Source: Longimicrobiales bacterium
GTDB lineage: Bacteria > Gemmatimonadota > Gemmatimonadetes > Longimicrobiales > Gaopeijiaceae
Reading direction: 5' to 3'
Length of the DNA: 64,000 nucleotides
NCBI GenBank assembly: GCA_965198065.1
Contig: CBDAON010000004.1
Coordinates: 1,088,001-1,152,000 of the forward strand
The stretch's first letter is position 1. Every line of letters begins with the position of its first letter. Positions 27,684 through 45,359 of the stretch are shown here, one piece after another. A program made the position numbers and the translations under genes. A model generated the notes under the pieces. That model saw only the letters and a program-made list of their open reading frames with translations, had not been told where the DNA came from and did no database searches.

Positions 27684-28037
27684 GTGCGTAACCTGATCGT
27701 ACGACTCTTCGTGAACGCCGTGGCCCTCTGGGTCTCCGCGCGCCTGGTGGGCGGCATCGAGCTTGCCGGAAGTTTCTCGGAGGTGCTCCTGGTCGCCGCG
27801 GTGTTCGGGATCGTGAACGCGCTGCTCAAGCCGCTCGTCGTCCTTCTCTCCCTCCCCTTCCTGATCCTCACGCTCGGCCTCTTCGCGCTCGTCATCAACG
27901 CGTCGATGCTGATGCTCACGGCTGCGCTCGTGGATTCGCTCGTGGTCGAGGGGTGGTGGGCGGCGCTGGTGGGGAGCGTGCTTGTCTCGCTCGTGAGCCT
28001 TCTCTTCTCAATCATGCTCCCGGATGCGCGGGACTGA
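27684..28037 (+). CDS. 4-TM phage-holin-family (YvlD-like) membrane protein
   Basis: GIVNALLKP...LSLPFLILTLGLFALVINA. Confidence 0.88.
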   Translation: MRNLIVRLFVNAVALWVSARLVGGIELAGSFSEVLLVAAVFGIVNALLKPLVVLLSLPFLILTLGLFALVINASMLMLTAALVDSLVVEGWWAALVGSVLVSLVSLLFSIMLPDARD

Positions 28038-28053: not shown

Positions 28054-29442
28054 CTACGCCCGACCCGCCTCCGCAGTCGGTACCGGCTGCGGCTGGACGC
28101 GTTCGTCCTCGCCGTAGTGGCGGTACTTCCAGCCTAGCCACAGCGCGAGCCCGAGCCAGGCCGCCGAGAACGGGACCATCACCCACGCGATAGCCGCCAG
28201 GGAGAGCCCCATCCACGTCATGAGCGCGCTCTGCGACCAGATGCCCACCTGGTCCCCGAAGCGGTAGACCGCCGTGTCGTTGAAGTTCTTCGACTTGAAC
28301 TTGTCCACCCTCGGAACGACCGTGTAGAGGACCTCCCTCGCGGGACGCTGCACCGAGAAGTTCGCGGCCCGTCGGAAGACCTGGAACGCGACCACAACCG
28401 AGAGGACGGAAGCGAACCCCAGGATCCCGAACCCGATCAGGCTCACCAGGGGGAGGAAAGCCAGCGAGAGCCCGATCCCGAACCACTTGAGGATGCGCCC
28501 CGTGAGGAAGAGCTGGGTGATCAGGGTGAGGCTCTGCACCGCCATCTCCATCACAGCGAAGAGGCGGATCGAGCCCTCGGGATTCCCCTCGTAAGCGGTC
28601 TCGACGATCGCGATGAGGTGCACGTAGAGGAACGTGGACACGACCGTGAAGAAGACCATGAGGCCCGCGACTCCGAGCAGGTAGGGGGACTTCGCCACGT
28701 GGCGGATCCCCTCCAGGAGCCCGCCCCCGATCACCTCCTGCTGGCGCTGCTCCGGGGCGACGACCTCCGGCAAGGTTCCCGATACGATCTCGCGGTCTCT
28801 CTCCGCCACGTCGTAGACCTTCTTCTCGTGCCGCTCCAGCATCTTCGACGCCCGCCCCGCTCCCTCGAGTAGGACGGCGGAGACGAGGAGCAGGTTTACC
28901 GGCCCCAGGAACGACACGAAGAACGCAGTGATGGAGGACCCGGTGAGCGCCCCGATCGTGCCCCCCACCGCCACCATCCCAAAGAGCCGCTTCCCCTGCG
29001 CGGGGCGGAAGACGTCCGTGAGGAAGGACCAGAACACGGACACCACGAAGAGGTTGAAGACGCTCGTCCACATATAGAAGAGCCGTCCCACCCAGACGCT
29101 CGGGACGATGTCGGCGGCCCGGAAAAGCAGGAAGAAGACGACCAGGTTCAGGATGAAGAACCGGTAGATCCACGGAACGAACACGCGGCGCGGATAGCGC
29201 CCGACGAGAGCCGTGAAGACCGGGTGGACGAGGAGCATCCCGATGAGCGTGCCCGTGAAGAGCCACGGGAGCGTCGTCGCCCCGCTCTCGACTCCCATCT
29301 GGTCACGGATAGGCCGGATGACGTAGTAGGCCGCGAGAACAAGGAAGAAGTACGCGAACGACCAGAGAAGGGCGGCGACCTCCTCGTCCCGGACGTCGAT
29401 CGTGCGCCGGAGCAGGTTCCCCACGGCGGTGCTCAAGGCCAT
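28054..29442 (-). CDS. NTT/TLC-like (ATP:ADP antiporter family) MFS transporter
   Basis: YYVIRPIRD, FNLFVVSVFWSF, KRLFG, PAREVLYT, KFKSKNFND...RFGD. Confidence 0.85.
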   Translation of the reverse strand: MALSTAVGNLLRRTIDVRDEEVAALLWSFAYFFLVLAAYYVIRPIRDQMGVESGATTLPWLFTGTLIGMLLVHPVFTALVGRYPRRVFVPWIYRFFILNLVVFFLLFRAADIVPSVWVGRLFYMWTSVFNLFVVSVFWSFLTDVFRPAQGKRLFGMVAVGGTIGALTGSSITAFFVSFLGPVNLLLVSAVLLEGAGRASKMLERHEKKVYDVAERDREIVSGTLPEVVAPEQRQQEVIGGGLLEGIRHVAKSPYLLGVAGLMVFFTVVSTFLYVHLIAIVETAYEGNPEGSIRLFAVMEMAVQSLTLITQLFLTGRILKWFGIGLSLAFLPLVSLIGFGILGFASVLSVVVAFQVFRRAANFSVQRPAREVLYTVVPRVDKFKSKNFNDTAVYRFGDQVGIWSQSALMTWMGLSLAAIAWVMVPFSAAWLGLALWLGWKYRHYGEDERVQPQPVPTAEAGRA

Positions 29443-29597: not shown

Positions 29598-30827
29598 TCA
29601 GTACCTCGGAATGGTGGGATCCACCTCACTCTGCCAGGCGCGGATACCGCCCTTCAGGTTCCAGACCTTGCGGAAGCCCGCGTCCTGGAGCCTCTTCAGC
29701 GCCTCCGCGCTCCTGGACCCCGCCTGGCAGTGGAGGACGATTTCCTCCGCGGAATCCAGCTCGGGCATCCGCTCGAGCAGGTTGTCCAGGGGGATCAGCT
29801 CGGCTCCGTACGCCCCTAGGTTCACGATTTCCCACTCGTGCGGCTCACGCACGTCCACGATCCGGAGACGGTCGCCCCGCTCGAGTCGGGCGTGGAGCTC
29901 CTTCGCGGTGACCGTGGGAACGTCCGACTGATCCTCCGCGGCTCCCTCCTCGTAGCCCGGGACACCGCAGAACTCGAGGTAGTCGATGAGCTCGGTGACG
30001 GTCGGGTTCTCGCCGCACACCGGGCACTCTGGGTTCTTGCGGAGCTTCAACGTCCGCCACTCCAGAGTGAGCGCGTCGAAGAGGAGGAGCCGCCCAATCA
30101 GGGGCTCCCCGCGGCCGATGATGAGCTTGATCGTCTCGAGCGCCTGCATGGCTCCGATGATGCCGGGGAGCACGCCGAGCACCCCGCCCTCGGCGCAGCT
30201 CGGCACCATCCCGGGGGGCGGCGGCTCTCGAAAAAGGCACCGGTAGCACGGGCCGTGGCGGGCGTCGAAGACGGACACCTGGCCCTCGAAGCGGAAGATG
30301 GAGCCGTACACGTTCGGCTTGCCCAGGAGAACGCACGCGTCGTTCGTGAGGTAACGCGTCGGGAAGTTGTCCGTCCCGTCCACGACCACGTCGTACGGGC
30401 GGATCACGTCCAGCGCGTTCTCGCTCGTCAGGCGGATTTCGTGAGGCACGACCTCGACGTGCGGGTTCACGTCCTTCAGGCGCTCGGCGGCGGACTCGAT
30501 CTTCGGGCGCCCGACGTCTTTCGTGCCATGGAGGAGCTGTCGCTGGAGGTTCGTCCGGTCCACGACATCGAAGTCCACGATGCCGACCCTTCCGATCCCG
30601 GCCGCCGCCAGGTACAGCCCTAAAGGGGACCCCAGCCCCCCGGCTCCGATCATGAGGACGCTCGCGTTCTTCAACCGGCGCTGCCCGGCCATCCCGACCT
30701 CAGGCATGATGAGGTGCCGGGAGTATCGCTCGATCTCCTCGTTCGACAGGTGGGGAAGCTCCCCCGCAGGAACGGTCCAAGGGGGGAAGCCCACTGGGCC
30801 GGTCGAGTTGCCGCTGGGCTTGCTCAT
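29598..30827 (-). CDS. moeB: MoeZ/MoeBR sulfur-carrier adenylyltransferase with C-terminal rhodanese domain
   Basis: RYSRH, GAGGLG, NLQRQ, DGTDNF, CYRC, CAEGGVLG, CPVC; rhodanese DVREPHE...HCQAGSRS. Confidence 0.93.
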   Translation of the reverse strand: MSKPSGNSTGPVGFPPWTVPAGELPHLSNEEIERYSRHLIMPEVGMAGQRRLKNASVLMIGAGGLGSPLGLYLAAAGIGRVGIVDFDVVDRTNLQRQLLHGTKDVGRPKIESAAERLKDVNPHVEVVPHEIRLTSENALDVIRPYDVVVDGTDNFPTRYLTNDACVLLGKPNVYGSIFRFEGQVSVFDARHGPCYRCLFREPPPPGMVPSCAEGGVLGVLPGIIGAMQALETIKLIIGRGEPLIGRLLLFDALTLEWRTLKLRKNPECPVCGENPTVTELIDYLEFCGVPGYEEGAAEDQSDVPTVTAKELHARLERGDRLRIVDVREPHEWEIVNLGAYGAELIPLDNLLERMPELDSAEEIVLHCQAGSRSAEALKRLQDAGFRKVWNLKGGIRAWQSEVDPTIPRY

Positions 30828-30904: not shown

Positions 30905-31543
30905 TCAGGCCGCCAGATGCTGGTGGATGTCGCGCGCGGCCTCGATCCGGACCTCGAGGGCAAGCCGGTCTCGGGGGTCGTTCGCGACCCGGGAGACCTG
31001 GACAGGGAGCCCTCCATAGACTGCGGTCACGGCCTCGCGGGCCACGTCCCTCAGGGCCTCGAATCCCGCGTCCGTGTTGGGCGCCCGGAGCCGGTCGTTC
31101 GACTCGATCCGCAGCAGGGAGGCGTCGAAGTCGAGCTTCCCCTGCACGCGCGGGTCGGTCTCAAGAAGCGCCGCCACGCGGAGCGCTTGCTTCAGGGTCG
31201 AGGCGATCGCTTCCGTTGCGTCACCCTCGAGCGGCACCCGTCGCTGGGCGAGGAGGCCGGACCGCCCGTCCGCGCAATCCAGGGCAAAGCTCACCTCCTG
31301 GGAGATCAGCATGATCCCCGGGCTGTCGGGCGCGTGCGCGTAGTCGGCCACATCCAGGAGGACCAGGTCCAGCGCCCCGTCCCGGATCCACTCGTGGAAG
31401 ATCGGGACGAACACCTCCACGTCGTCCTCAATCTCGGGGGGAGCGGACGTGTAGAGCTTCACGCAGATGCGATAGAGGCCCTCCAGGCCGGCCGATCCCA
31501 CGCTGCCCGCGGTCGCGCCCGCTCCGCCGCCGCCTCCGCTCAC
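30905..31543 (-). CDS. Hypothetical protein translationally coupled to sulfite reductase
   Basis: GTG overlaps sir stop; FVPIFHEWIR...LLDVADYAH...PGIMLI. Confidence 0.75.
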   Translation of the reverse strand: MSGGGGGAGATAGSVGSAGLEGLYRICVKLYTSAPPEIEDDVEVFVPIFHEWIRDGALDLVLLDVADYAHAPDSPGIMLISQEVSFALDCADGRSGLLAQRRVPLEGDATEAIASTLKQALRVAALLETDPRVQGKLDFDASLLRIESNDRLRAPNTDAGFEALRDVAREAVTAVYGGLPVQVSRVANDPRDRLALEVRIEAARDIHQHLAA

Positions 31544-33882
31544 AACGGAAACCCCACGCCCAATCCGTTTCCGCCCGTCCCCGCGGCCTGCGCCTCGAGG
31601 AGGCGGCTGTAACACCCGTGCGCCGCCTCGACGAAGAGCTGCGCTTCCTCAACCCGGCGATGGGCTTCGTCCCCGTCCCGGACCCGGCCCCCGGCCTCGT
31701 GCACGCTCTGGAGGTACCCCCACTCCTTCGCGCCCACGAAACGCTCGAAGAACAGCTCCGTATCGATGAACTTCATCTTGAACTCGGGGAACACGAGCGC
31801 AGGATCGCCCTTCTGATCCGGGTTCTCGGCCTTGAGGAGACCCTGGGCCGCGAGGATCATCGCCTGGTAGGCGAGCTGACCGGCTTCGTCGAAGCGCGCC
31901 GGTCCCGCTCTTTCGTCGTCCAGGAGCACCGACGCGTCGAACGCCTTGGACTCCGCGTTCGCAAGGCTGAATTGGGTGAGCGTCACGACCTCCCCAGCGC
32001 ACTCGCCCACGCCGATGTCCCCGATCGAGTACTCGCGCGCGTCGTGCCAGTCGACGTAGAAGGTCGGATCGGTCTCGTAGGCCGGCACGGCGAGGAGATC
32101 CCCGAGCCTCCCCTTGATCTCCTTCTTCCCCACCCGCACGACCCACGAGCGGAACGTCTCGTCCGACTCACGCTCGGTCGTGTAAAGGTCGAGGAGCCGA
32201 TCCACCGTCTCCGGGATCCGCTTGGACGGAACGGCACCCATGGCCAGCCCGTAGCTCCCCGCGTTCTCCTCGAGCGATCCGCCGAGAAGCAGCTGGAAGT
32301 GGGGCACCTTGTAGGCGCCCACGTTCCGGCTCGAGCCGTAGAAGCCGATGTCGGCGATGTGATGCATCCCGCACGAGTTCGGGCACCCGCTCACCTTGAT
32401 GTGCACGTCCTTGAGGACCGGATCCAAATGGAGCTCTCGCTCGTGCAGGCGCTCCCTGAGCTCGGCGCCAAGCCCGCGCGAGCTGGCGATCCCGAGCTTG
32501 CAGGTGTCCGTGCCCGGGCATGCGGTCACGTCGGTGATCGTCGCCGCGCCCGTAGACACGAGCTTCGCCTCGTGGAGCTCGTTGTAGATAGCGACCAAGT
32601 CCTTCTCGTGGATCCAGCGGAGGAAGAAGTTCTGGTCCACGTTCGTGCGGAGCGCGCCGGGAGCGTACTTCCGGACGAGGTCCGCGAGCCTGCGCGTCTG
32701 ACGGGACGTGATGTCGCCCAGGGGAAGGTTGATCGTGACCGCCACGGACCCCTCTTGGCGCTGCCGGTAGACGTTCGTCTTCGACCACTCCTCGAACCCG
32801 TCCGCCGGCACGGTCGACTCGTCGGTGACCGGCTCCGAGCGCCCCTCGATCTGGGGCAGGCGCGCCTCCTCGAGCCAGGCGTCCCAGCGCGGATCGGGCT
32901 CAAGCGCAGACAGCTCCTCCTCCACCACGCACTTGAACTCGTCGATCCCGAGCTTGGCCACGAGGAACTTGATCCGGGCCTTGTTCCGGTTCCGCTTCTC
33001 GCCCAGCCGGGCGAAGACGCGGGCGATCGCCTGTGAGAGCGGGAGCATCTGGGCTTCCGGCATAAACTCGTAGAGCACCTTGGCCACGTGCGGGACGGGC
33101 CCAAGCCCACCGCCCACCACCACCGTGAAGCCCCGCTCCTCCACGCCGTCCACCTCCCGGGTCGCCGCGACGAACCCGAGGTCATGCATCATGACGCGGG
33201 AGCAGCCCTCATGTCCGCATCCGGAGTATGCGATCTTGAACTTCCGCCCGAAGTCCTGGACGTCCGGATGACCGAGGAGGAAGGAGGCCTCGGCCTTCGC
33301 GTAGGGAGAGATGTCGAAGCGCTCGTCCGTGCAGATCCCCGCCTTGGGGCAACCGGTGACGTTCCGGACCGAGTTCCCGCACGCCTCCCGTGTCGTGATC
33401 CCAACAGCGGCCAGGCGCCGGTGCAGATCCGGCGTGTCCTCGATATCGACGAAGTGCAGCTGGACATCCTGTCGGGTCGTGATGTGGAGGACCGCGTTCG
33501 AGTACTCCTCCGCGCAGTCCGCGAGGACCTCGAGCTGCTCGGCCGTGACCTGCCCGTACGGGATCTTGATCCGCTGCATTCCCGGCGCGTCCCATTCGGT
33601 CTCGGGCCCCTTCGTAAGCCCGAGGCGCCGGAAGGGGAGCTCCTGGGTCTTGGTCCCATCGTAGCGCTGACCGTTGTCGTAGCGCTGGCCGTAGGCGCCC
33701 CGCCGGAGGCGAAGCTCGGCGAAGACCTTGTCCTCGATCTTTCCCTGTTTCCGGAGCTCCATCTGCGCCTCGTAGGAGTCGATCTCCTCCGTCACGTGGG
33801 GAGGAATGCTATCCGCGAGCCGCACCTTCCAGCTCCACTGCCCCGGACTAGTCGCGCCGGTGTTCGTCTCGCCTGGGCTCAT
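31540..33882 (-). CDS. sir: Ferredoxin-type sulfite (nitrite/sulfite) reductase, siroheme/[4Fe-4S]
   Basis: HITTRQ, CGNSVRN, RKFKIA, CPGTDTC and SGCPNSCG ligands; downstream of cysH. Confidence 0.9.
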   Translation of the reverse strand: MSPGETNTGATSPGQWSWKVRLADSIPPHVTEEIDSYEAQMELRKQGKIEDKVFAELRLRRGAYGQRYDNGQRYDGTKTQELPFRRLGLTKGPETEWDAPGMQRIKIPYGQVTAEQLEVLADCAEEYSNAVLHITTRQDVQLHFVDIEDTPDLHRRLAAVGITTREACGNSVRNVTGCPKAGICTDERFDISPYAKAEASFLLGHPDVQDFGRKFKIAYSGCGHEGCSRVMMHDLGFVAATREVDGVEERGFTVVVGGGLGPVPHVAKVLYEFMPEAQMLPLSQAIARVFARLGEKRNRNKARIKFLVAKLGIDEFKCVVEEELSALEPDPRWDAWLEEARLPQIEGRSEPVTDESTVPADGFEEWSKTNVYRQRQEGSVAVTINLPLGDITSRQTRRLADLVRKYAPGALRTNVDQNFFLRWIHEKDLVAIYNELHEAKLVSTGAATITDVTACPGTDTCKLGIASSRGLGAELRERLHERELHLDPVLKDVHIKVSGCPNSCGMHHIADIGFYGSSRNVGAYKVPHFQLLLGGSLEENAGSYGLAMGAVPSKRIPETVDRLLDLYTTERESDETFRSWVVRVGKKEIKGRLGDLLAVPAYETDPTFYVDWHDAREYSIGDIGVGECAGEVVTLTQFSLANAESKAFDASVLLDDERAGPARFDEAGQLAYQAMILAAQGLLKAENPDQKGDPALVFPEFKMKFIDTELFFERFVGAKEWGYLQSVHEAGGRVRDGDEAHRRVEEAQLFVEAAHGCYSRLLEAQAAGTGGNGLGVGFPL

Positions 33883-33946
33883 CGTTTGCCGTCCTGACTC
33901 GTCCCGCCGATTCACGTCGAGGTACGGGCTGGGTACCGTACCCTCG

Positions 33947-34732
33947 TCACAAGTTATGGAGCCCGCACTCTGTCCGGGTGCCCCCGCGCCACCGCCCCGC
34001 CCGCTCGTGCTCCCCCGGGAGCGTGGGCGTCGTGAGGGGCTCGTCCCCGATGCTCGCGTAGCCCTCGTCGTGGAGGGGATGATAGAGCACCCGGTTCACC
34101 ATGATGAACTCCCACACTTGGTCCAGGGTCCAGAGCGCGAGAGGGTTCACTTTCGTGCGGCCATTCTTCTCGACGATCGGAATCCCGGCTCGCGACTCCG
34201 ATTGGTCCCGTCGCCGGCCGCTGATCCACCCCTCGAAGCCGTCCAGCGCCCTCCGCATCGGCTCGACCTTCGTGAGCTGGTGGAACAGCTCCTCGTCCCG
34301 TTCCCAGAGGCGCTCCCCGTGCTGGGCCTCTAACGCCTCCCTCGACTTGGCGGCGGGGAACGTGCGGAGGTCGATCCCGTAGTGCTCGCGCACCCGCTCC
34401 GCATGCTCGAGGGTCTCCGGGAAGTGGTAGAGCGTATCCACGAAAAGCACGGGAGTGCGAATCCCCTCCTCCGCCAGCATGTGGATGAGGATCATCCCGC
34501 TGGGACCGAACGTGGACGACATCGCGACCCGGCCCTCGGGGAAGGCGGATGCGGCCCAGCGGAGCACCTCCCTCGGATCGGCTCCCTCGAAGTGGCGGCT
34601 GAGATCCGCGGCTTCCTCGGCGGTGAGAGAAGCCGATACGAACGGAGCCGGCGCCACCACCGGGTCCACCGCCCTGCCGTCCGCAGAGATGCCCATCGTC
34701 TCGACTCCGGCCCCCAGAATGTCCTCTCTCAC
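33947..34732 (-). CDS. cysH: Phosphoadenylyl-sulfate (PAPS/APS) reductase lacking Fe-S cysteines
   Basis: FVDTLYHFPET, KVEP, GRRRDQ, KVNPL, GYASIGD, RAGRW, ECGLH. Confidence 0.92.
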   Translation of the reverse strand: MREDILGAGVETMGISADGRAVDPVVAPAPFVSASLTAEEAADLSRHFEGADPREVLRWAASAFPEGRVAMSSTFGPSGMILIHMLAEEGIRTPVLFVDTLYHFPETLEHAERVREHYGIDLRTFPAAKSREALEAQHGERLWERDEELFHQLTKVEPMRRALDGFEGWISGRRRDQSESRAGIPIVEKNGRTKVNPLALWTLDQVWEFIMVNRVLYHPLHDEGYASIGDEPLTTPTLPGEHERAGRWRGGTRTECGLHNL

Positions 34733-34846
34733 CGCCGCCTCGTCCTTCCAAGCTCCGTTCGCCAGACCTTCGTCCGCCCCCAGCTGCCGCTCCTGTCCAC
34801 CGGCACCGGTCCGCGCTCCACCTTCCGTCCTAGTCCCGCCCCGGCC

Positions 34847-34880
34847 AAATCAAAAGCCCCGACCTCTTGGAGGTCGGGGC
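34847..34880 (-). terminator. Intrinsic terminator (attenuator) between leader ORF and cysH
   Basis: GCCCCGACCTC-CAA-GAGGTCGGGGC-TTTTGATTT. Confidence 0.85.
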
Positions 34881-34905
34881 CGAAGTCCTCTGCGCGATCG
34901 GGCGG

Positions 34906-34989
34906 CTACGCGAAGTGTCTCCGGGACCCACCCCCAGCGGGGGAGGCCGGACAAGAACACATCGCGCAACACATCGCGGTCATAGCCAT
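34906..34989 (-). CDS. Met/Cys-rich leader peptide MAMTAMCCAMCSCPASPAGGGSRRHFA (27 aa)
   Basis: 4 Met + 4 Cys in the first 13 codons; lies between promoter and terminator upstream of cysH. Confidence 0.8.
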   Translation of the reverse strand: MAMTAMCCAMCSCPASPAGGGSRRHFA

Positions 34990-34998
34990 AGCGAGAAG

Positions 34999-35027
34999 AC
35001 TTTAGGCCGAAGGGCGGGGGACGTCAA
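34999..35027 (-). promoter_or_regulatory. sigma70 promoter of the leader-cysH operon
   Basis: TTGACG-N17-TAAAGT; -10 ends 9 nt before the leader ATG. Confidence 0.8.
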
Positions 35028-36700
35028 GGCCCTCCGGAGCCTTCCGGAGCCCCGTGGCCGACCTTCCCCGTCCCCGTCCGCCGGCTCCCGCGGGCAGCTT
35101 CGAGCTCGGTCCTGGCCATGGACATGAACACGGAGCACGGCTCCGGGCAGGGGATCTGGCCCCCGGGACCTGCCTTCTCGCCCGCGGGGTCACCGCCCGC
35201 CCAAGTGGGACGGCGGAGGCACCGCCCCGGGGCACAGCACCGGGAAACGACCCGCTCCACCCCCTTCTCGTCGAGCTCCGCGACGCCCGCATAGATCCCG
35301 GTCTGGCGAGGCGCCGCCCGGGCAAACGGGGTGAGCGCGAGCCGGCCCCGTAGGGCCAGGTGCCGGTGGACGAGCGCGGTCGGGTAGAGATGCGCGTAGG
35401 CCTCCCAGACCTGGTCGGGCGAGAGGTCGGTGAGGCGCCACCCACCGGCCAGGTCCGGCGCGGTCTTGAGTGGCCGATGGACTCCGTTCCCTGAGCGGGC
35501 CGCGACCTCGAGCGCGTCCTCCGGATCGAGGAGTTGCCGGAGCTCGGCCCCGTCCCGACCGCGGTCGTCCACGTGCCGGATTTCGTAACGCCGCTCGTGG
35601 GCGGGGGTCGCCCCGGCACCCCCCGGCTGCGGTGCGAGCGGACGGACTACCGCCTGGAGCACGTCCCACCCATCGGGACCCGCTTCCCCAAGCCAGGCGG
35701 CGAAGGCCTCCCTCGCCTCGCGAACGTCGGAGGGCGTGGGCGGCGACCGGCCTCCGGGACTCTTCTCGTCAGTCTCCCGGCCGGGCGTCCGATCGTCGGG
35801 CCCATCGGTGCGTCCCTCCCCTCCTTCCTCCTCCCGAACGATCCGGTGGACGAGGTCGACCAGCGACGGATGCGTGCCCACCGGCTGCGCGTACCAGATC
35901 GTCGCGCCGCCCCTCTCCGTCCGACCTCCCGAGATGGCCAGCGTCGCCGGAACGGTCGAGCCCGCGTGCCATCCCTCTGACATGAAGAAGGGGACGAGGA
36001 TCACGTTCCCGTCCGCGAGCTGGGGAAGGAGCTGCTCGACGCGGGGATCTTGGTCCAGGAACGCCGCGAGCACGCGGCGGTAGGGGCCACGCGCGCGGAT
36101 GCGCTCGACGACAGCAAGAGTCGTGTCTCCCGAGCGGGAATGGGCGTCCGTCCCGTGCCCGATCACGACGAGCGTCGCGCCGGCCTCGTCCCCCGCATCG
36201 AGCGGGGCCACCTCTCTGGCCCGCTCGCGTACGATCGCCTCCATGTGCGGATGCGCGCCCACCGGCGGACAGAGGCGGAGGACCCGGCCGGAGCGGCGGG
36301 TCACCCGTCCCGCGAGGCCGAGCTCTCGGGGGACGACCGTCTCCGTGAAGTAACCAGTGCTCGTAAACAGGGGAACGACGAGCACCTCGCGACTCTCGAC
36401 CAGGTCGAGCGCGGTGTGGAGGTGCGGGTCCTCCTTCCAGAACCCCACCCGGACCTCGGCGAACGCACGGTCCTCCCTCAGCCGGCAGGCCAGGAGGTGG
36501 ACGGGACGGGCGGAGTCCGAGCTGTGGTGGGAGCCGTGCCCCACGAGAAGCACTCCCGCGGCCGACCCACCGCCCCCGGACGGGCTCCGGCCGGCCCACT
36601 CGGGGCCCTGACTCCCGCCTTCCCGCGTCCTTGACAAGGTTCGAACGCCTCCCCTACGTAAGGCTCCAGCGCCGGAGGCGCGCCGCTCCGAAGGTTCCAC
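35024..36700 (-). CDS. CbiX/SirB-type chelatase fused to a Cys-containing DR2241-like C-terminal domain
   Basis: LLVGHGS, FWKEDP, VPLF...GYF, IGHGT, PFF..GWH; C-terminal RPLKTAPDL, CC...C, PCPEPC. Confidence 0.82.
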   Translation of the reverse strand: MEPSERRASGAGALRRGGVRTLSRTREGGSQGPEWAGRSPSGGGGSAAGVLLVGHGSHHSSDSARPVHLLACRLREDRAFAEVRVGFWKEDPHLHTALDLVESREVLVVPLFTSTGYFTETVVPRELGLAGRVTRRSGRVLRLCPPVGAHPHMEAIVRERAREVAPLDAGDEAGATLVVIGHGTDAHSRSGDTTLAVVERIRARGPYRRVLAAFLDQDPRVEQLLPQLADGNVILVPFFMSEGWHAGSTVPATLAISGGRTERGGATIWYAQPVGTHPSLVDLVHRIVREEEGGEGRTDGPDDRTPGRETDEKSPGGRSPPTPSDVREAREAFAAWLGEAGPDGWDVLQAVVRPLAPQPGGAGATPAHERRYEIRHVDDRGRDGAELRQLLDPEDALEVAARSGNGVHRPLKTAPDLAGGWRLTDLSPDQVWEAYAHLYPTALVHRHLALRGRLALTPFARAAPRQTGIYAGVAELDEKGVERVVSRCCAPGRCLRRPTWAGGDPAGEKAGPGGQIPCPEPCSVFMSMARTELEAARGSRRTGTGKVGHGAPEGSGGP

Positions 36701-36898
36701 GCGCGCGGCCCCGGAGTCGCGCGAGCGCCATCCGCCTCAACCTAACGAAGCCCTTCCGCGACGCCGAAGGAACCGGAGGGCGGGCGAGTACCGGCGATGA
36801 CCCGACGAGCCCCCGACCGCTCTCCAGGCCGGGGGCTCGCGCCCTTTCGGGCGGGAAGCGTCGCCAGGGCGTGGAGGGGAACGCCAGAAGGTGGACCG

Positions 36899-37726
36899 AT
36901 GACCCGAAAGCGACCGGGAACCGTATACCTCGTCGGGGCCGGCCCCGGCGACCCGGATCTTCTCACCCGAAAGGGCGCGCGGCTCCTGGCCGTGGCGGGT
37001 GCGGTCGTGCACGACGCCCTCATTGACTCCAGGCTTTTTACGGAGGTCGCGCCCGGCGCCGAGCTGTACGACGTGGGGCGGCGAGCGGGGACGAAGCGAC
37101 TGGACCAACCCCAAGTGAACGAGCTCCTGATCAAGCTCGCGGGGGTCCATGAGATCGTGGTTCGACTGAAGGGGGGAGACCCGTTTGTCTTCGGTCGTGG
37201 GGGAGAGGAGGCAATCGCGCTCAAGGCCGCCGGCATACCGTTCGAGGTGGTTCCTGGAGTCACGTCAGGGGGTGCGGTCCCCGCGTACGCGGGGATCCCC
37301 CTGACCCACCGGGGAGTGGCCTCGTCGGTGACGTTCCTCACCGGGCACCAAGTCACGTCTGCCCCGGAGGGGGCGGAAGCCTCGAGCCCCATCACCCGGG
37401 AGGGGACGCTCGTGATCTTCATGGGCCTCCTCAGGGTCGAGGAGATCGCGCGGGGACTGATCGAGCGAGGTCTATCGCCGGACACGCCGACGGCGGTGAT
37501 CCAGTCGGGGACCTACGCGTCCCAGCGGACCGTCACGGGAGTGCTGGCGGACATCGGGGAGCGGGCGCGGGCGGGTCGCATTTCGCGCCCCGCGCTCATC
37601 GTGGTCGGGGACGTCGTGGCGCTTCGCGAGGGGATCCGCTGGTTCCCCGAGGCGGGAGTCGAAACAGCGACCGGCAAAGGCCCCCCCGAGCGGGGAGTGG
37701 CTCAGGGCGCGGACAAAGCGAAGTGA
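36899..37726 (+). CDS. cobA: Uroporphyrinogen-III C-methyltransferase (siroheme synthesis)
   Basis: VYLVGAGPGDPDLLT, RLKGGDPFVFGRGGEE, PGVTS, GIPLTHR. Confidence 0.93.
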   Translation: MTRKRPGTVYLVGAGPGDPDLLTRKGARLLAVAGAVVHDALIDSRLFTEVAPGAELYDVGRRAGTKRLDQPQVNELLIKLAGVHEIVVRLKGGDPFVFGRGGEEAIALKAAGIPFEVVPGVTSGGAVPAYAGIPLTHRGVASSVTFLTGHQVTSAPEGAEASSPITREGTLVIFMGLLRVEEIARGLIERGLSPDTPTAVIQSGTYASQRTVTGVLADIGERARAGRISRPALIVVGDVVALREGIRWFPEAGVETATGKGPPERGVAQGADKAK

Positions 37727-37947
37727 GTGTAGTTCTTCTCGATGTAGGCCGTCCACTCCGGGGGCACGTCGGTATCCGGAAAGATCGCCTGAACCGGGCA
37801 CTCGGGCTCGCAGGCCCCGCAGTCGATGCACTCTTCGGGCTGGATGTAGTACTGGTCGTCCGCGTCGTAAATGCAGTCCACGGGGCAGACGTCCACGCAG
37901 CTCGCGTCCTTCGTGCCGATGCAGGGCTCGGCGATGATGTAGGTCAT
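37702..37947 (-). CDS. Ferredoxin (7Fe/8Fe FdxA type)
   Basis: MTYIIAEPC...CVDVCPVDC...CIDCGACEPECP. Confidence 0.93.
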   Translation of the reverse strand: MTYIIAEPCIGTKDASCVDVCPVDCIYDADDQYYIQPEECIDCGACEPECPVQAIFPDTDVPPEWTAYIEKNYTHFALSAP

Positions 37948-38471
37948 AGACCGTCGGCTGAGGTAGTTCTTGCGCTTGAGTACCTCTCCTCCCCCCGACT
38001 CCGTTCTGCCGGAAGCTCCGACACGGGGACCCGCAGGGGCGACCCGGGCGCCGCCGGATTCCAGCGCCACGCCCCCATGGCCGCCCAGTCGTCCGAGGCG
38101 TCCTCCCCCACGATGAGCCAAAGCACTTCGGGCCACAGCTCCATGTATCCCCGATCGATCGAGGACGGAACCGGCCGCCCCACCGGGTGGGAGTGGTAGA
38201 ATCCCACGATCTCGTGCCCCGTTCCCCGGAGCGAGCGTTCCTCCTCGATCACCCGTCGAGGATCGATCGTGAACCGCGTTCGCCTTCGACCCGCCGGAGC
38301 CTCGTTGGGGCACGGGATCGCGCGCGTGACCCAGATGTCCCCGTCCTGGATCCGCCCCACCAAGAGCCCACACGCCTCGTCGGGAGACGCCCGTCTCGCG
38401 TCCTCCACCACGGTCCGCGAGACGTCCGGGGAGAGGTAGGCGCCCTCGGTCCACCCCTCCCCACCGCTCAC
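37944..38471 (-). CDS. JAMM/MPN+ (Mec-like, M67) metalloprotease
   Basis: EACGLL...GFYHSHP...PSSID JAMM motif. Confidence 0.9.
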   Translation of the reverse strand: MSGGEGWTEGAYLSPDVSRTVVEDARRASPDEACGLLVGRIQDGDIWVTRAIPCPNEAPAGRRRTRFTIDPRRVIEEERSLRGTGHEIVGFYHSHPVGRPVPSSIDRGYMELWPEVLWLIVGEDASDDWAAMGAWRWNPAAPGSPLRVPVSELPAERSRGEERYSSARTTSADGL

Positions 38472-38758
38472 CAGTCGGGCCCCACACCCCCCGCGATGGA
38501 GGGAACGATGGATACCTCGTCGCCTTCCTTCACGGGCGTGTCCAGATCCTTCTCGTAACGGACGTCGGTGCCGTTCACGAACACGTTCAGGAACTGTCGC
38601 ACCTCGCCCTGCTCTCCGAGGATCCGGCCGAGGAGATCGGGGTGCGTACTCCCGAGGTCGTCGAACAGCTCCCGCACGGTAGCCCCTTCCGCCTGGAGCT
38701 CCGCCTGTCCGTTCGTGAGCTTACGAAGCGCGCTCGGCACTCGGACGGTAACGCTCAT
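38468..38758 (-). CDS. CysO/MoaD-like ubiquitin-fold sulfur carrier with C-terminal extension after GG
   Basis: VRVPSALR...LNVFVNG..VR....LDT.V..GDEVSIVPSIAGG-VGPDW. Confidence 0.92.
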   Translation of the reverse strand: MSVTVRVPSALRKLTNGQAELQAEGATVRELFDDLGSTHPDLLGRILGEQGEVRQFLNVFVNGTDVRYEKDLDTPVKEGDEVSIVPSIAGGVGPDW

Positions 38759-40032
38759 CCCTCTACCTCCTCGCTCGCGGCCAGTCGCTCCACCTCGGCG
38801 AGCCTCGGCTGGATGGGATCCTCCAGCCGGAACGTGCCGCGCGCGGCATCCGGAGTCTTGAGCCCGTTCCCCGTGATGCAGAGAACGGTGGGTCCGTCAC
38901 GCCGGAGCCGACCGTCCCGGACCAGGCGCGCCGCAGCGGAAACCGTAACGCCTCCGGCCGTTTCCGTGAAGACGCCATCCAAGGTCGCCAGCAGGCCGAT
39001 CCCGTCAACGATCTCCGGGTCGGACACCGCCTCCCCCCAGCCTCCGGTCTCCTGGATCGTCTCCACCGCAAACAGACCGTCCGCCGGATTTCCGATCGCG
39101 AGCGAGCGTGCGATGGTGTTGGGTTTCTGAATCGGCCGCACCTGCCGCTCTCCGGCCTGCACCGCGTTCACGATGGGTGCGCAGCCCGACGCCTGTGCGC
39201 CGAACATCCGGGGCTCCGGACCCTCCTCGACGAGGCCGGTCTTCATGAGCTCGCGGAAGCTCTTCCGAACCTTCGTGATGAGCGACCCGCCCGCCATGGG
39301 GACGACGACGTTCGCGGGCAGCGTCCAGCCGAGCTGCTCGGCGATCTCGTACCCCATGGACTTCGAGCCCTCGCTGTAGTAGGCCCTGAGATTGACGTTC
39401 ACGATTCCCCATCCGAACCGGTCCGCCACCTCCGCACAAAGCCGATTCACATCGTCGTACACCCCCCGTACGCGGACCACCCTCGCCCCGTGCACGCCCG
39501 TCGCAACGATCTTTTCCACCTCCAGGTCCTCGGGAATGAAGATCCAGGCGCGGAGGCCCGCGGTCGCGGCCTGTGCGGCCACCGCGTTCGCTAGGTTGCC
39601 TGTCGACGCGCATCCGACCACGTCCATGCCGAACTCCCCCGCACGTTGGAGAGCGACCGCAACGACTCGGTCCTTGAACGACTGCGTCGGATGGTTCGAC
39701 GAGTCTACCTTGATCCAGAGATCATCGATGCCCAGCGCGGCTCCCAGCCTCGGAGCTCGGAGGAGCGGCGTCCACCCGACCCCGAGCCCGCGGGTCGGCT
39801 CCTCGGCAACGGGCAGGAGCTCGCGGTACCGCCACAGGTCGGTAGGTCGCGATGCGATCCTCTCCCGCGTGAGCCGACCGCGGAGCCGCTCAAGATCGTA
39901 GACGACCTCTAGAGGACCAAAGCACTCCTCGCAGACGTGATGCGGGCCGGCTTCCGTCTCCGTCCCACAAATTCGACATCGAAGCGTGCTCAGCGCCGCG
40001 GGGGCGAGGGGTGCCAAGTTCGTCTCGCTCAT
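38755..40032 (-). CDS. Threonine-synthase-like PLP enzyme (fold type II) with N-terminal Zn ribbon
   Basis: CRIC...CEEC, PTQSFKDR, ASTGNLA, EGSKS, PMAGGSL, ITGNGLK; start ATG 40032. Confidence 0.88.
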   Translation of the reverse strand: MSETNLAPLAPAALSTLRCRICGTETEAGPHHVCEECFGPLEVVYDLERLRGRLTRERIASRPTDLWRYRELLPVAEEPTRGLGVGWTPLLRAPRLGAALGIDDLWIKVDSSNHPTQSFKDRVVAVALQRAGEFGMDVVGCASTGNLANAVAAQAATAGLRAWIFIPEDLEVEKIVATGVHGARVVRVRGVYDDVNRLCAEVADRFGWGIVNVNLRAYYSEGSKSMGYEIAEQLGWTLPANVVVPMAGGSLITKVRKSFRELMKTGLVEEGPEPRMFGAQASGCAPIVNAVQAGERQVRPIQKPNTIARSLAIGNPADGLFAVETIQETGGWGEAVSDPEIVDGIGLLATLDGVFTETAGGVTVSAAARLVRDGRLRRDGPTVLCITGNGLKTPDAARGTFRLEDPIQPRLAEVERLAASEEVEG

Positions 40033-40150: not shown

Positions 40151-40197
40151 AGAAAAAGGAAAGAGCCCCGACCTCTCTGGAAGAAGGCCGGGGCTCT
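40151..40197 (-). terminator. Intrinsic terminator (attenuator) between leader ORF and thrC-like gene
   Basis: AGAGCCCCGGCCT-TCTTCCAGAG-AGGTCGGGGCTCT-TTCCTTTTTCT. Confidence 0.85.
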
Positions 40198-40220
40198 CTC
40201 GCTCCGTCGGGTCCGCTTGC

Positions 40221-40328
40221 CTAGCGCCTGGCGCCTCCGGACACGACCGTCCCCGATGCGCCTTCCTCCATGGAGGAAGCCGACATCGAACAACGGCACA
40301 TGCACATGTAGCCGCGAGCGACCCGCAT
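40221..40328 (-). CDS. Met/Cys-rich leader peptide MRVARGYMCMCRCSMSASSMEEGASGTVVSGGARR (35 aa)
   Basis: MCMCRCSM cluster; AGGAG RBS 10 nt upstream; lies between promoter and terminator. Confidence 0.8.
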   Translation of the reverse strand: MRVARGYMCMCRCSMSASSMEEGASGTVVSGGARR

Positions 40329-40375: not shown

Positions 40376-40404
40376 ACGGTACCGAAGCAGGCCAGAGGCG
40401 TCAA
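40376..40404 (-). promoter_or_regulatory. sigma70 promoter of the leader-thrC-like operon
   Basis: TTGACG-N17-TACCGT. Confidence 0.75.
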
Positions 40405-44491: not shown

Positions 44492-45157
44492 ATGTGTCGT
44501 AGCTCTGGAACACTCATGTTACTCCTGCTCGTCCTGGGCTTCATGGTCGCCCCCAGCGACGTCGCCGCTCAAGCCAATCCCGCCAATCCCGCGCACACGC
44601 ACATCGGGCACGTGCACGCCGGCTTTCCGGCGACGCCCGACGGGCAGGGGCTCCTCCCGACCGCGATCGCGGAAGCCGGGGTCGTAGCCCAGCACATCCG
44701 GCTCGCGGCCAACGACTTGACGAACCTTCAGGGCATGCAGAACCACGCGGGGCACGTGCTCCACGCGCTCGACCCGAGCATCCAGGCCAATGGGCCGGGC
44801 CTCGGGTTCGGGCTCAAGCGGGCCGCCGACGGGATCGCCCAGCACATCGGCCTCGCCGCGGGCTCGGAGGGCGCGTCGCAGGCCGTCCAGACGCACGCCG
44901 GGCACGTGGGGGCGTCCGCGCGCACCGTATCCCAGCGTGCCGACCAGCTCATCGAGATGGCCCAGCGGGTCCGGTCGGCTCCCGATTACACGACGGCGGG
45001 GAACATCATCGAGCAGATGCAGGCTCTGGCCGGGCAAGTCACCACGGGACAGGACGCGGACGGGAACGGCTCGGTGGGATGGCAGGAGGGTGAAGGCGGG
45101 CTCGATCAGATCACCACGCACATGGGTCTCATGACCCGGGCCGAGGGGATCGACTGA
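44492..45157 (+). CDS. Exported His-rich helical protein, unknown function
   Basis: GGAGG RBS, signal peptide, HTHIGH, NHAGHVLH, THAGH, DADGNG. Confidence 0.8.
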   Translation: MCRSSGTLMLLLLVLGFMVAPSDVAAQANPANPAHTHIGHVHAGFPATPDGQGLLPTAIAEAGVVAQHIRLAANDLTNLQGMQNHAGHVLHALDPSIQANGPGLGFGLKRAADGIAQHIGLAAGSEGASQAVQTHAGHVGASARTVSQRADQLIEMAQRVRSAPDYTTAGNIIEQMQALAGQVTTGQDADGNGSVGWQEGEGGLDQITTHMGLMTRAEGID

Positions 45158-45359
45158 GTCACCCTCTCGGGCCGAAGGCCCGGGGGATCTTTCGGACAGG
45201 TCGCTGAAGGACGGGTCGGGCTGCGAGCCCCCCGGTCTCAGCGGCCTGTTCGTTTTCGGTCCTAGGCCCCACGTATGCTAGACCCCACGCATCTAACGCA
45301 CGGCCCCGTACGCCGAAACCCCGCGCACCGAACCGGCCGCTCCGGGGTACGAGCGCGCC

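Follow-up and report, generated by a model that had tools for sequence, protein, structure and literature searches.

The DNA directly upstream of the cysH-sir-hyp-moeZ operon of a Longimicrobiales bacterium (genome G000) is very likely an amino-acid attenuator. Its leader probably reads both methionine and cysteine, by way of an antiterminator that opens the operon. We regard it as a real and conserved element which works like the classical leader-peptide attenuators and probably belongs among them. Throughout, the window denotes the whole stretch of DNA that was analysed, 64,000 nucleotides in length.

The focal leader and the operon behind it

The focal leader is encoded on the minus strand and contains a promoter-like site, a short ORF and a terminator-like hairpin, as follows.

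34999..35027, minus strand: sigma70-type promoter-like site TTGACG-N17-TAAAGT (-35 box 35027-35022, -10 box 35004-34999)
34906..34989, minus strand: leader ORF of 27 codons, MAMTAMCCAMCSCPASPAGGGSRRHFA followed by a stop codon, with orthologous leaders in relatives
34951..34989, minus strand: control region, codons 1-13, with four Met and four Cys codons (three TGT, one TGC), delimited by sequence and composition statistics
34847..34881, minus strand: intrinsic terminator-like hairpin and U-rich tail, with 12 pairs at 34881-34855

The promoter named by the first-pass annotation is present at 35027-34999 and is the sole promoter-like site between 34000 and 36000 (shuffle mean 0.1). Its -35 box shares bases with the stop codon that ends the cbiX-like gene upstream. 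The description of the ORF was borne out in both its parts: it begins 9 nt past the -10 box, and 8 of its first 13 codons are Met or Cys, in a genome where these residues make up 1.6% and 0.69% of the codons of long ORFs, respectively. The further description of the ORF as near-leaderless holds for this locus, but such starts (within 12 nt of the -10 box) are a minority among its relatives (14 of 67). Two of the four Met codons may have a role as start codons, and the segment AMCC-AMCS is a 12-nt tandem duplication. Two independent DNA runs cover the entire focal stretch, with one base change within the ORF. The hairpin had been called a perfect terminator with a U tract; it does lie at the place given, 115 nt before cysH, and is conserved in relatives, but the last of its 12 pairs is G-U and it is followed by TTTGATTT, which is an interrupted U tract.

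This arrangement is rare in G000, which contains 382 terminator-like hairpins and 306 short-ORF ends located 40-80 nt before one. Three of the 306 have at least five Met or Cys residues in 12 codons, and two of these are leaders in the window, both standing at sulfur genes. The third candidate (C4:1740357-1740500) was set aside as chance; the next ORF in the sense direction encodes a dicarboxylate symporter about 540 nt past the U tract. No Rfam aptamer reached its gathering score in 33000-37000, where the focal leader was tested for a SAM riboswitch or T-box, and sub-threshold matches to anti-hemB (E 0.17, over the terminator) and msiK were discarded. The genome has another leader of the classical type, a His-rich ORF with a terminator directly upstream of hisG (C4 about 1280830-1281000, minus strand; L179) in the classical his layout, which suggests that the organism uses leader-attenuator devices. 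A His-rich match elsewhere in the window (about 45140-45250) and a Thr-rich match (C4 about 436840) were rejected, as no cognate gene was shown behind either.

The genes behind the leader and its upstream neighbors are listed below.

33947..34732, minus strand: cysH, APS/PAPS reductase (NCBIfam PRK02090 and TIGR00434 above cut-off)
31540..33915, minus strand: sir/NirA-like sulfite reductase (top NCBIfam matches PRK09567 and CysI-type, all under cut-off)
30905..31615, minus strand: conserved hypothetical protein of 236 aa, without a Pfam or NCBIfam family, overlapping the end of sir
29598..30827, minus strand: moeZ, E1-like adenylyltransferase with rhodanese (profile match)
35024..36700, minus strand: CbiX-like chelatase gene, upstream neighbor of the leader, divergent from cobA
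36797-37726, plus strand: cobA, divergent from the cbiX-like gene

The MoeZ product is likely a sulfur-carrier ligase. The hypothetical protein matched unnamed Atlas clusters only, from Myxococcota and Acidobacteriota (scores 0.91-0.92). The CbiX-like protein, in which CbiX domains are fused with DR2241-type and 4Fe-4S domains, likely takes part in siroheme synthesis for sulfite reductase. Downstream of moeZ are an MFS-like transporter gene (28054-29442, minus strand) and a small membrane-protein ORF (27684-28037, plus strand).

Occurrence of the leader across Gemmatimonadota

Across the order Longimicrobiales, cysH was found in 64 of 401 genomes. The order survey covered 62 of these together with G030, and in 57 of the 63 the cysH operon is headed by a Cys-rich ORF whose stop codon is followed by a terminator 40-80 nt on. 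Fifty-two of these leaders came from a script, two from a separate step and three, with weaker U tracts or fewer Cys residues, were recognized by eye; in the six misses the operon head lay outside the DNA examined. Some leaders are located 2-4 kb upstream of cysH, with other genes in between. For two other Gemmatimonadota families, 47 genomes have cysH and 29 of them were surveyed; a script recovered the leader with its terminator in 19 of the 29, while Cys-rich ORFs were identified by eye in three more genomes and SAM-II was present instead in two. The survey was run without G180 and G109. Among 35 cysH loci from other phyla, none had a Met/Cys cluster with a terminator. The conserved Met/Cys-rich uORF that had been proposed as a check is found in orthologous cysH leaders (57/63 in the order and 19/29 in other Gemmatimonadota), and the trp/his-type layout ascribed to the focal leader is conserved across the phylum.

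Shared features were measured in 98 distinct leaders, drawn from 38 genera after removal of duplicates and one doubtful match (the first at L098); leaders found by eye, along with the G157 and G099 leaders, stand outside this set and the 70-genome table. A promoter-like site lies at most 260 nt upstream in 69 of the 98, relative to a background of 4.1%, and 92 have an in-frame ATG. The distance from stop codon to U tract is held at a median of 54 nt (5-95%: 48-67) while the peptides diverge: from clade to clade the codon runs and the spacing persist, but the peptide tails do not. The leader Cys codons are predominantly TGT (279/415, 67%) compared with those of G000 genes (656/3185, 21%), a bias that may slow decoding or help in pairing.

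Variants of the arrangement were also observed. Paired Cys-rich leaders, each with a terminator and mostly in direct tandem, precede cysH or sir at L018, L020, L021, L081, L099, L101, L108, L111, L112, L121, L122 and L123. In some g10 and g75 leaders a single ORF is followed by two terminators. At L025, L092 and L094, extra Cys leaders, each followed by a terminator, lie downstream of cysH and some 670 nt ahead of cobA.

Methionine as a likely second input

Upstream of the focal leader, on the same strand as cysH, are three further sulfur genes preceded by a second leader; cobA and the cbiX-like gene complete the island.

38755..40032, minus strand: ThrC-family PLP enzyme (PRK08197 above cut-off)
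38468..38758, minus strand: MoaD/ThiS-type sulfur carrier, MetO-like (profile match)
37944..38471, minus strand: JAB-domain protease, Mec-like (profile match)
40376..40404, minus strand: second promoter-like site, TTGACG-N17-TACCGT, from sequence
40221..40328, minus strand: second leader ORF, MRVARGYMCMCRCSMSASSMEEGASGTVVSGGARR followed by a stop codon (four internal Met, three Cys), with orthologues in relatives
40152..40200, minus strand: second-leader terminator-like hairpin and U-rich tail, from sequence and folding

With moeZ, the ThrC-family enzyme, sulfur carrier and JAB hydrolase make up the MetM/MetO/Mec/MoeZ gene set, as its components are listed in Table 2 and S1D of PMC13759103. 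MetM is frequently misannotated as threonine synthase, according to S1D of the same source. Based on its family and neighbors, the ThrC-family enzyme is likely a MetM-type homocysteine synthase, a reading to which its orthologues under SAM-II lend indirect support; a cyanobacterial MetM homologue is described in PMC12172450 as not behaving fully like MetM. G000 also encodes a second ThrC homologue, cysK and metH. Near this second homologue are a group II intron reverse transcriptase/maturase (G000:C3 41867-43270; L181:1868-3271, minus strand) and a short MmeI-like ORF.

Met is likely a true second input besides Cys, since sulfide from the operon would go to the thiocarboxylate homocysteine route as well as to CysK. 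Genes for this route are adjacent and have a Met-richer leader of their own (40404-40152, minus strand), missed in the first-pass annotation, which has its own promoter-like site and terminator and precedes the MetM-like gene. In the order, a Met/Cys leader (at least three in 14 codons, one case being weak) is located directly upstream of 16 of 22 MetM-like loci, and in all nine genomes in which both leaders entered the count, representing six genera, the MetM-like leader has a higher Met fraction than the cys leader of the same genome. A seventeenth MetM-like locus, L150, has a leader with Met and without Cys in front of a panB-like/MetM-like/carrier/moeZ operon. The antiterminator predicted for this leader holds through the last Met codon and then falls away. 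Among full-length metY loci, 10 of 22 likewise had leaders with both Met and Cys, at 4-9 such codons in 14; one of these leaders is weak. The earlier proposal that both amino acids are inputs gains support from the comparative evidence.

Other members of the phylum have SAM-II at the same genes. It scored above the gathering threshold in 10 of 20 MetM-like loci scanned, which were chosen for having no leader directly upstream, and the panB-like/MetM-like operon of L147, L201 and L207 carries SAM-II, not a Met-only leader. At L239 (L273) SAM-II, identified by Rfam, is followed by a Met/Cys leader and then metY; L227 is arranged likewise, by motif only. SAM-II at L189 (L272) precedes a Cys-alternating ORF that reaches cysH and has no terminator of its own. 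In G000 itself neither SAM-I (RF00162) nor SAM-II (RF00521) was matched, with 150 candidates scored for each in a genome that is 88% complete.

In 9 of 48 loci the gene directly ahead of the MetM-like one belongs to the PanB family and lies behind SAM-II or a Met-only leader (L150 (2805-3749, minus strand), L147, L148, L151, L199, L201, L207, L209 and L221). Its product possibly has a role in the methionine pathway or one-carbon metabolism, not in pantothenate synthesis.

The presence of Met in cys leaders also follows the gene content of the genome. Where a genome has a MetM-like or MetY gene (G365 being counted as having MetY, though under the curated cut-off), its cys leader has a Met after the first Cys in 36 of 44 cases. 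Where neither gene was found, this holds for 3 of 26 genomes, although absence was scored in draft genomes and hence is no proof of absence. By genus, the proportions are 20/24 and 3/11. Eighteen of the 23 genomes that lack both the route and Met form one supported clade in the CysH tree, which leaves about five independent places in support of the correlation, against 3 plus 8 exceptions.

It is also conceivable, although unlikely, that the attenuator senses Cys only and that the Met codons of the focal leader are alternative starts or by-products of duplication which carry no signal. Cys does prevail in the leaders of cys operons (394 Cys to 134 Met in 81 leaders), Cys alone suffices in 23 genomes, and the AMCC unit of the focal leader is duplicated. 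Against this, Met accounts for 19% of non-Cys residues inside the clusters and 2.1% in the tails (69 leaders, not dereplicated by genus), and Met-rich and Met-only leaders precede Met-pathway genes. Slippage of (TG)n repeats was rejected as an origin of Met, since Val, the expected product, makes up only 2 of 141 cluster residues.

The predicted RNA switch and its relation to known systems

Two further structures were predicted within the focal leader.

34893..34978, minus strand: predicted 1:2 (anti-antiterminator) hairpin, from folding, forming when the Met/Cys run is free of the ribosome
34868..34936, minus strand: predicted antiterminator, ORF tail 34936-34908 with 34895-34868, including the 5' arm of the terminator

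The transcript was folded as far as the terminator loop, with the bases under the ribosome masked, as had been suggested in the first-pass annotation. In the ribosome-free fold, the tail of the ORF is paired to the Met/Cys run; the 1:2 hairpin is strong in folds of the focal leader and weak or absent in many relatives. When the A site is placed on codons 6-14, the predicted antiterminator appears, with the tail pairing to the 5' arm of the terminator (-32.6 to -34.3 kcal/mol), and both Met6 and Met10 fall inside this predicted stall window. Once the ribosome is past codon 17, the antiterminator helix is lost; in this state, as in the ribosome-free one, the arm is available for terminator formation. 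The register originally proposed, GGGGGTGGGTCC with GGACTTCGGCCCC, had to be replaced: its -20.3 kcal/mol falls about 12 kcal/mol short of the -32.6 obtained for the best one (34936-34908 with 34895-34868).

In the stalled state, the native tail outperforms shuffled tails at capturing the terminator arm in 84 of the 98 leaders and outperforms tails of other genera in 84 of 98, and 41 of 43 genus-by-gene groups favor the native tail against each control, on a measure with a high baseline (0.72 vs 0.55 and 0.53). Pairing was greater in the stalled than in the ribosome-free state in only 66 of 98 leaders, and g137 leaders form little antiterminator. At equilibrium, the full transcript keeps its terminator in every ribosome position (P 0.92-0.99), so the switch would have to be kinetic. 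Covarying stems, which had been proposed as a check, were found for the terminator, where 97.2% of alignment cells are paired and five pairs change on both sides in 12 close relatives. For the antiterminator (91.5% of cells paired, 12 relatives) such support is thin, consisting of two pairs changed on both sides (five cells) in related sequences, and one column changes along with both its antiterminator and its terminator partner. Two RNA runs (X1 and X2) had a small word share, with contigs inside cysH only.

Control without any antiterminator helix is improbable. Ribosome position or uncoupling would then act through the terminator or Rho, or the nascent peptide would arrest on a sulfur metabolite. 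The prevalence of the terminator at equilibrium and the weak antiterminator in one genus are in line with such control, and Rho dependence has been suggested for Actinobacterial Cys leaders in PMC1262725. However, native tails outdo both shuffled and swapped ones, and conservation between clades lies in codon runs and spacing, not in peptide tails. Finally, it is hardly credible that the hairpin merely terminates the cbiX-like gene, with an ORF that arose by chance or that encodes a small Cys-rich peptide of the metal-binding or RiPP-precursor kind. It is true that there is no further terminator-like site between the cbiX-like stop codon and the hairpin and that the -35 box overlaps that stop codon. 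Against this, the layout recurs at loci without cbiX upstream, and it also stands ahead of sir, cobA, jab, metY and the MetM-like gene; Met/Cys-rich ORFs are as scarce among the terminator-linked short ORFs of G000 as given above (3/306, two at sulfur genes), and the peptides are not conserved.

In the antiterminator model that we favor, transcription would start near 34992 and the near-leaderless ORF would take up a ribosome. As long as Cys- and Met-tRNA are in good supply, this ribosome would reach the stop codon and cover the tail, and the terminator would end the RNA near 34850. Should charged tRNA-Cys or elongator tRNA-Met run short, the ribosome would stall on codons 6-13, the tail would capture the terminator arm, and cysH-sir-hyp-moeZ would be transcribed. 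We infer translation of the ORF, stall-dependent read-through by RNA polymerase and kinetic switching.

The focal family shares with the classical attenuators (trpL, hisL, thrL, leuL, pheL and ilv) end-product codons in a uORF, an intrinsic terminator and, by prediction, competing hairpins; its uORF is enriched in end-product codons and its terminator stands at a conserved distance. The thrL and ilv leaders respond to more than one amino acid. Unlike the classical cases, the family has Met and Cys as its cognate amino acids and sulfur assimilation and homocysteine synthesis as its targets, its Met:Cys ratio varies by gene, and tandem copies and pairing with SAM-II occur. The classical model is set out in PMC1183508.

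Several leaders already described come close to this one. The leaderless metL ORF before metNIQ in Streptomyces lividans has a mixed Met/Cys run and is a proposed Met-dependent attenuator (PMC8079986, Table 4), but as described there it is a prediction at one transporter locus, with the run at the end of the ORF and no typical Rho-independent terminator. In Deinococcus deserti, leaderless Met-rich or Cys-containing ORFs with predicted attenuation precede metG and cysS (PMC4007540, Table S9); by that account they belong to tRNA-synthetase genes, use one amino acid each and come with no structure analysis. A Cys-codon uORF with an intrinsic terminator, uORFC-8-2, is predicted to govern cysS of Rhodobacterales by ribosome-mediated attenuation, but it is given with two Cys and no Met, at cysS only and in another phylum (PMC8632094). 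The mycobacterial 'Cys ribulon' consists of polycysteine leaderless sORFs at several sulfur operons, with a tested Cys response (10.1101/834739), and resembles the focal family in its Cys runs in short 5' ORFs and its multiple sulfur operons per genome. It differs in translational control by SD masking at the tested locus, and the portions of the two sources that treat these leaders describe no conserved terminators and no Met codons (10.1101/834739; PMC1262725); the focal leader has a conserved terminator. Actinobacterial Cys leaders are likewise given without terminators in PMC1262725, and Streptomyces metM has a SAM riboswitch upstream (PMC12172450). In other Gemmatimonadota, SAM-II (RF00521) stands with a terminator in front of the same genes (MetM-like, metY and cysH); it senses SAM directly and is absent from the focal leader.

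In the mostly open-access literature searched, which did not include the surveys of the Lyubetsky group, nothing was found on leader peptides in Gemmatimonadota, nor, in mostly open-access sources, any experimentally tested Met-codon attenuator; the available portions of PMC2965389, PMC4833913 and PMC545781 contain no Met or Cys leader. Within that literature, the statement that no mixed Met+Cys attenuator has been described in the lineage stands, and attenuation by Met codons occurs there only in two predictions of one line each. The mechanism is textbook, and predicted leaders of the Cys, the Met and the mixed Met/Cys type have been published before. What appears to be unpublished is the Met+Cys version with full terminator and antiterminator on sulfur-assimilation genes, as well as the tuning of the codon mix to gene function and the exchange with SAM-II.

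The controls usually described for methionine genes are SAM riboswitches, T-boxes or repressors. With about a hundred natural variants, a swap of SAM-II for the leader on the same operon and a Met-only case, attenuation by Met codons becomes directly testable in a reporter. The codon mix of a leader also predicts gene function, flagging 'threonine synthase' genes as likely MetM. We are modestly inclined to view the Gemmatimonadota leaders as a tunable two-amino-acid sensor that replaced SAM-II in much of one order, with the Met:Cys mix set by the destination of the sulfur. If so, leaders would have Cys alone where cysteine is the sole product, a mixture where part of the sulfide goes into homocysteine, and mostly or only Met before homocysteine synthase, and charged elongator tRNA-Met would serve de novo methionine synthesis as a primary signal at the level of transcription.
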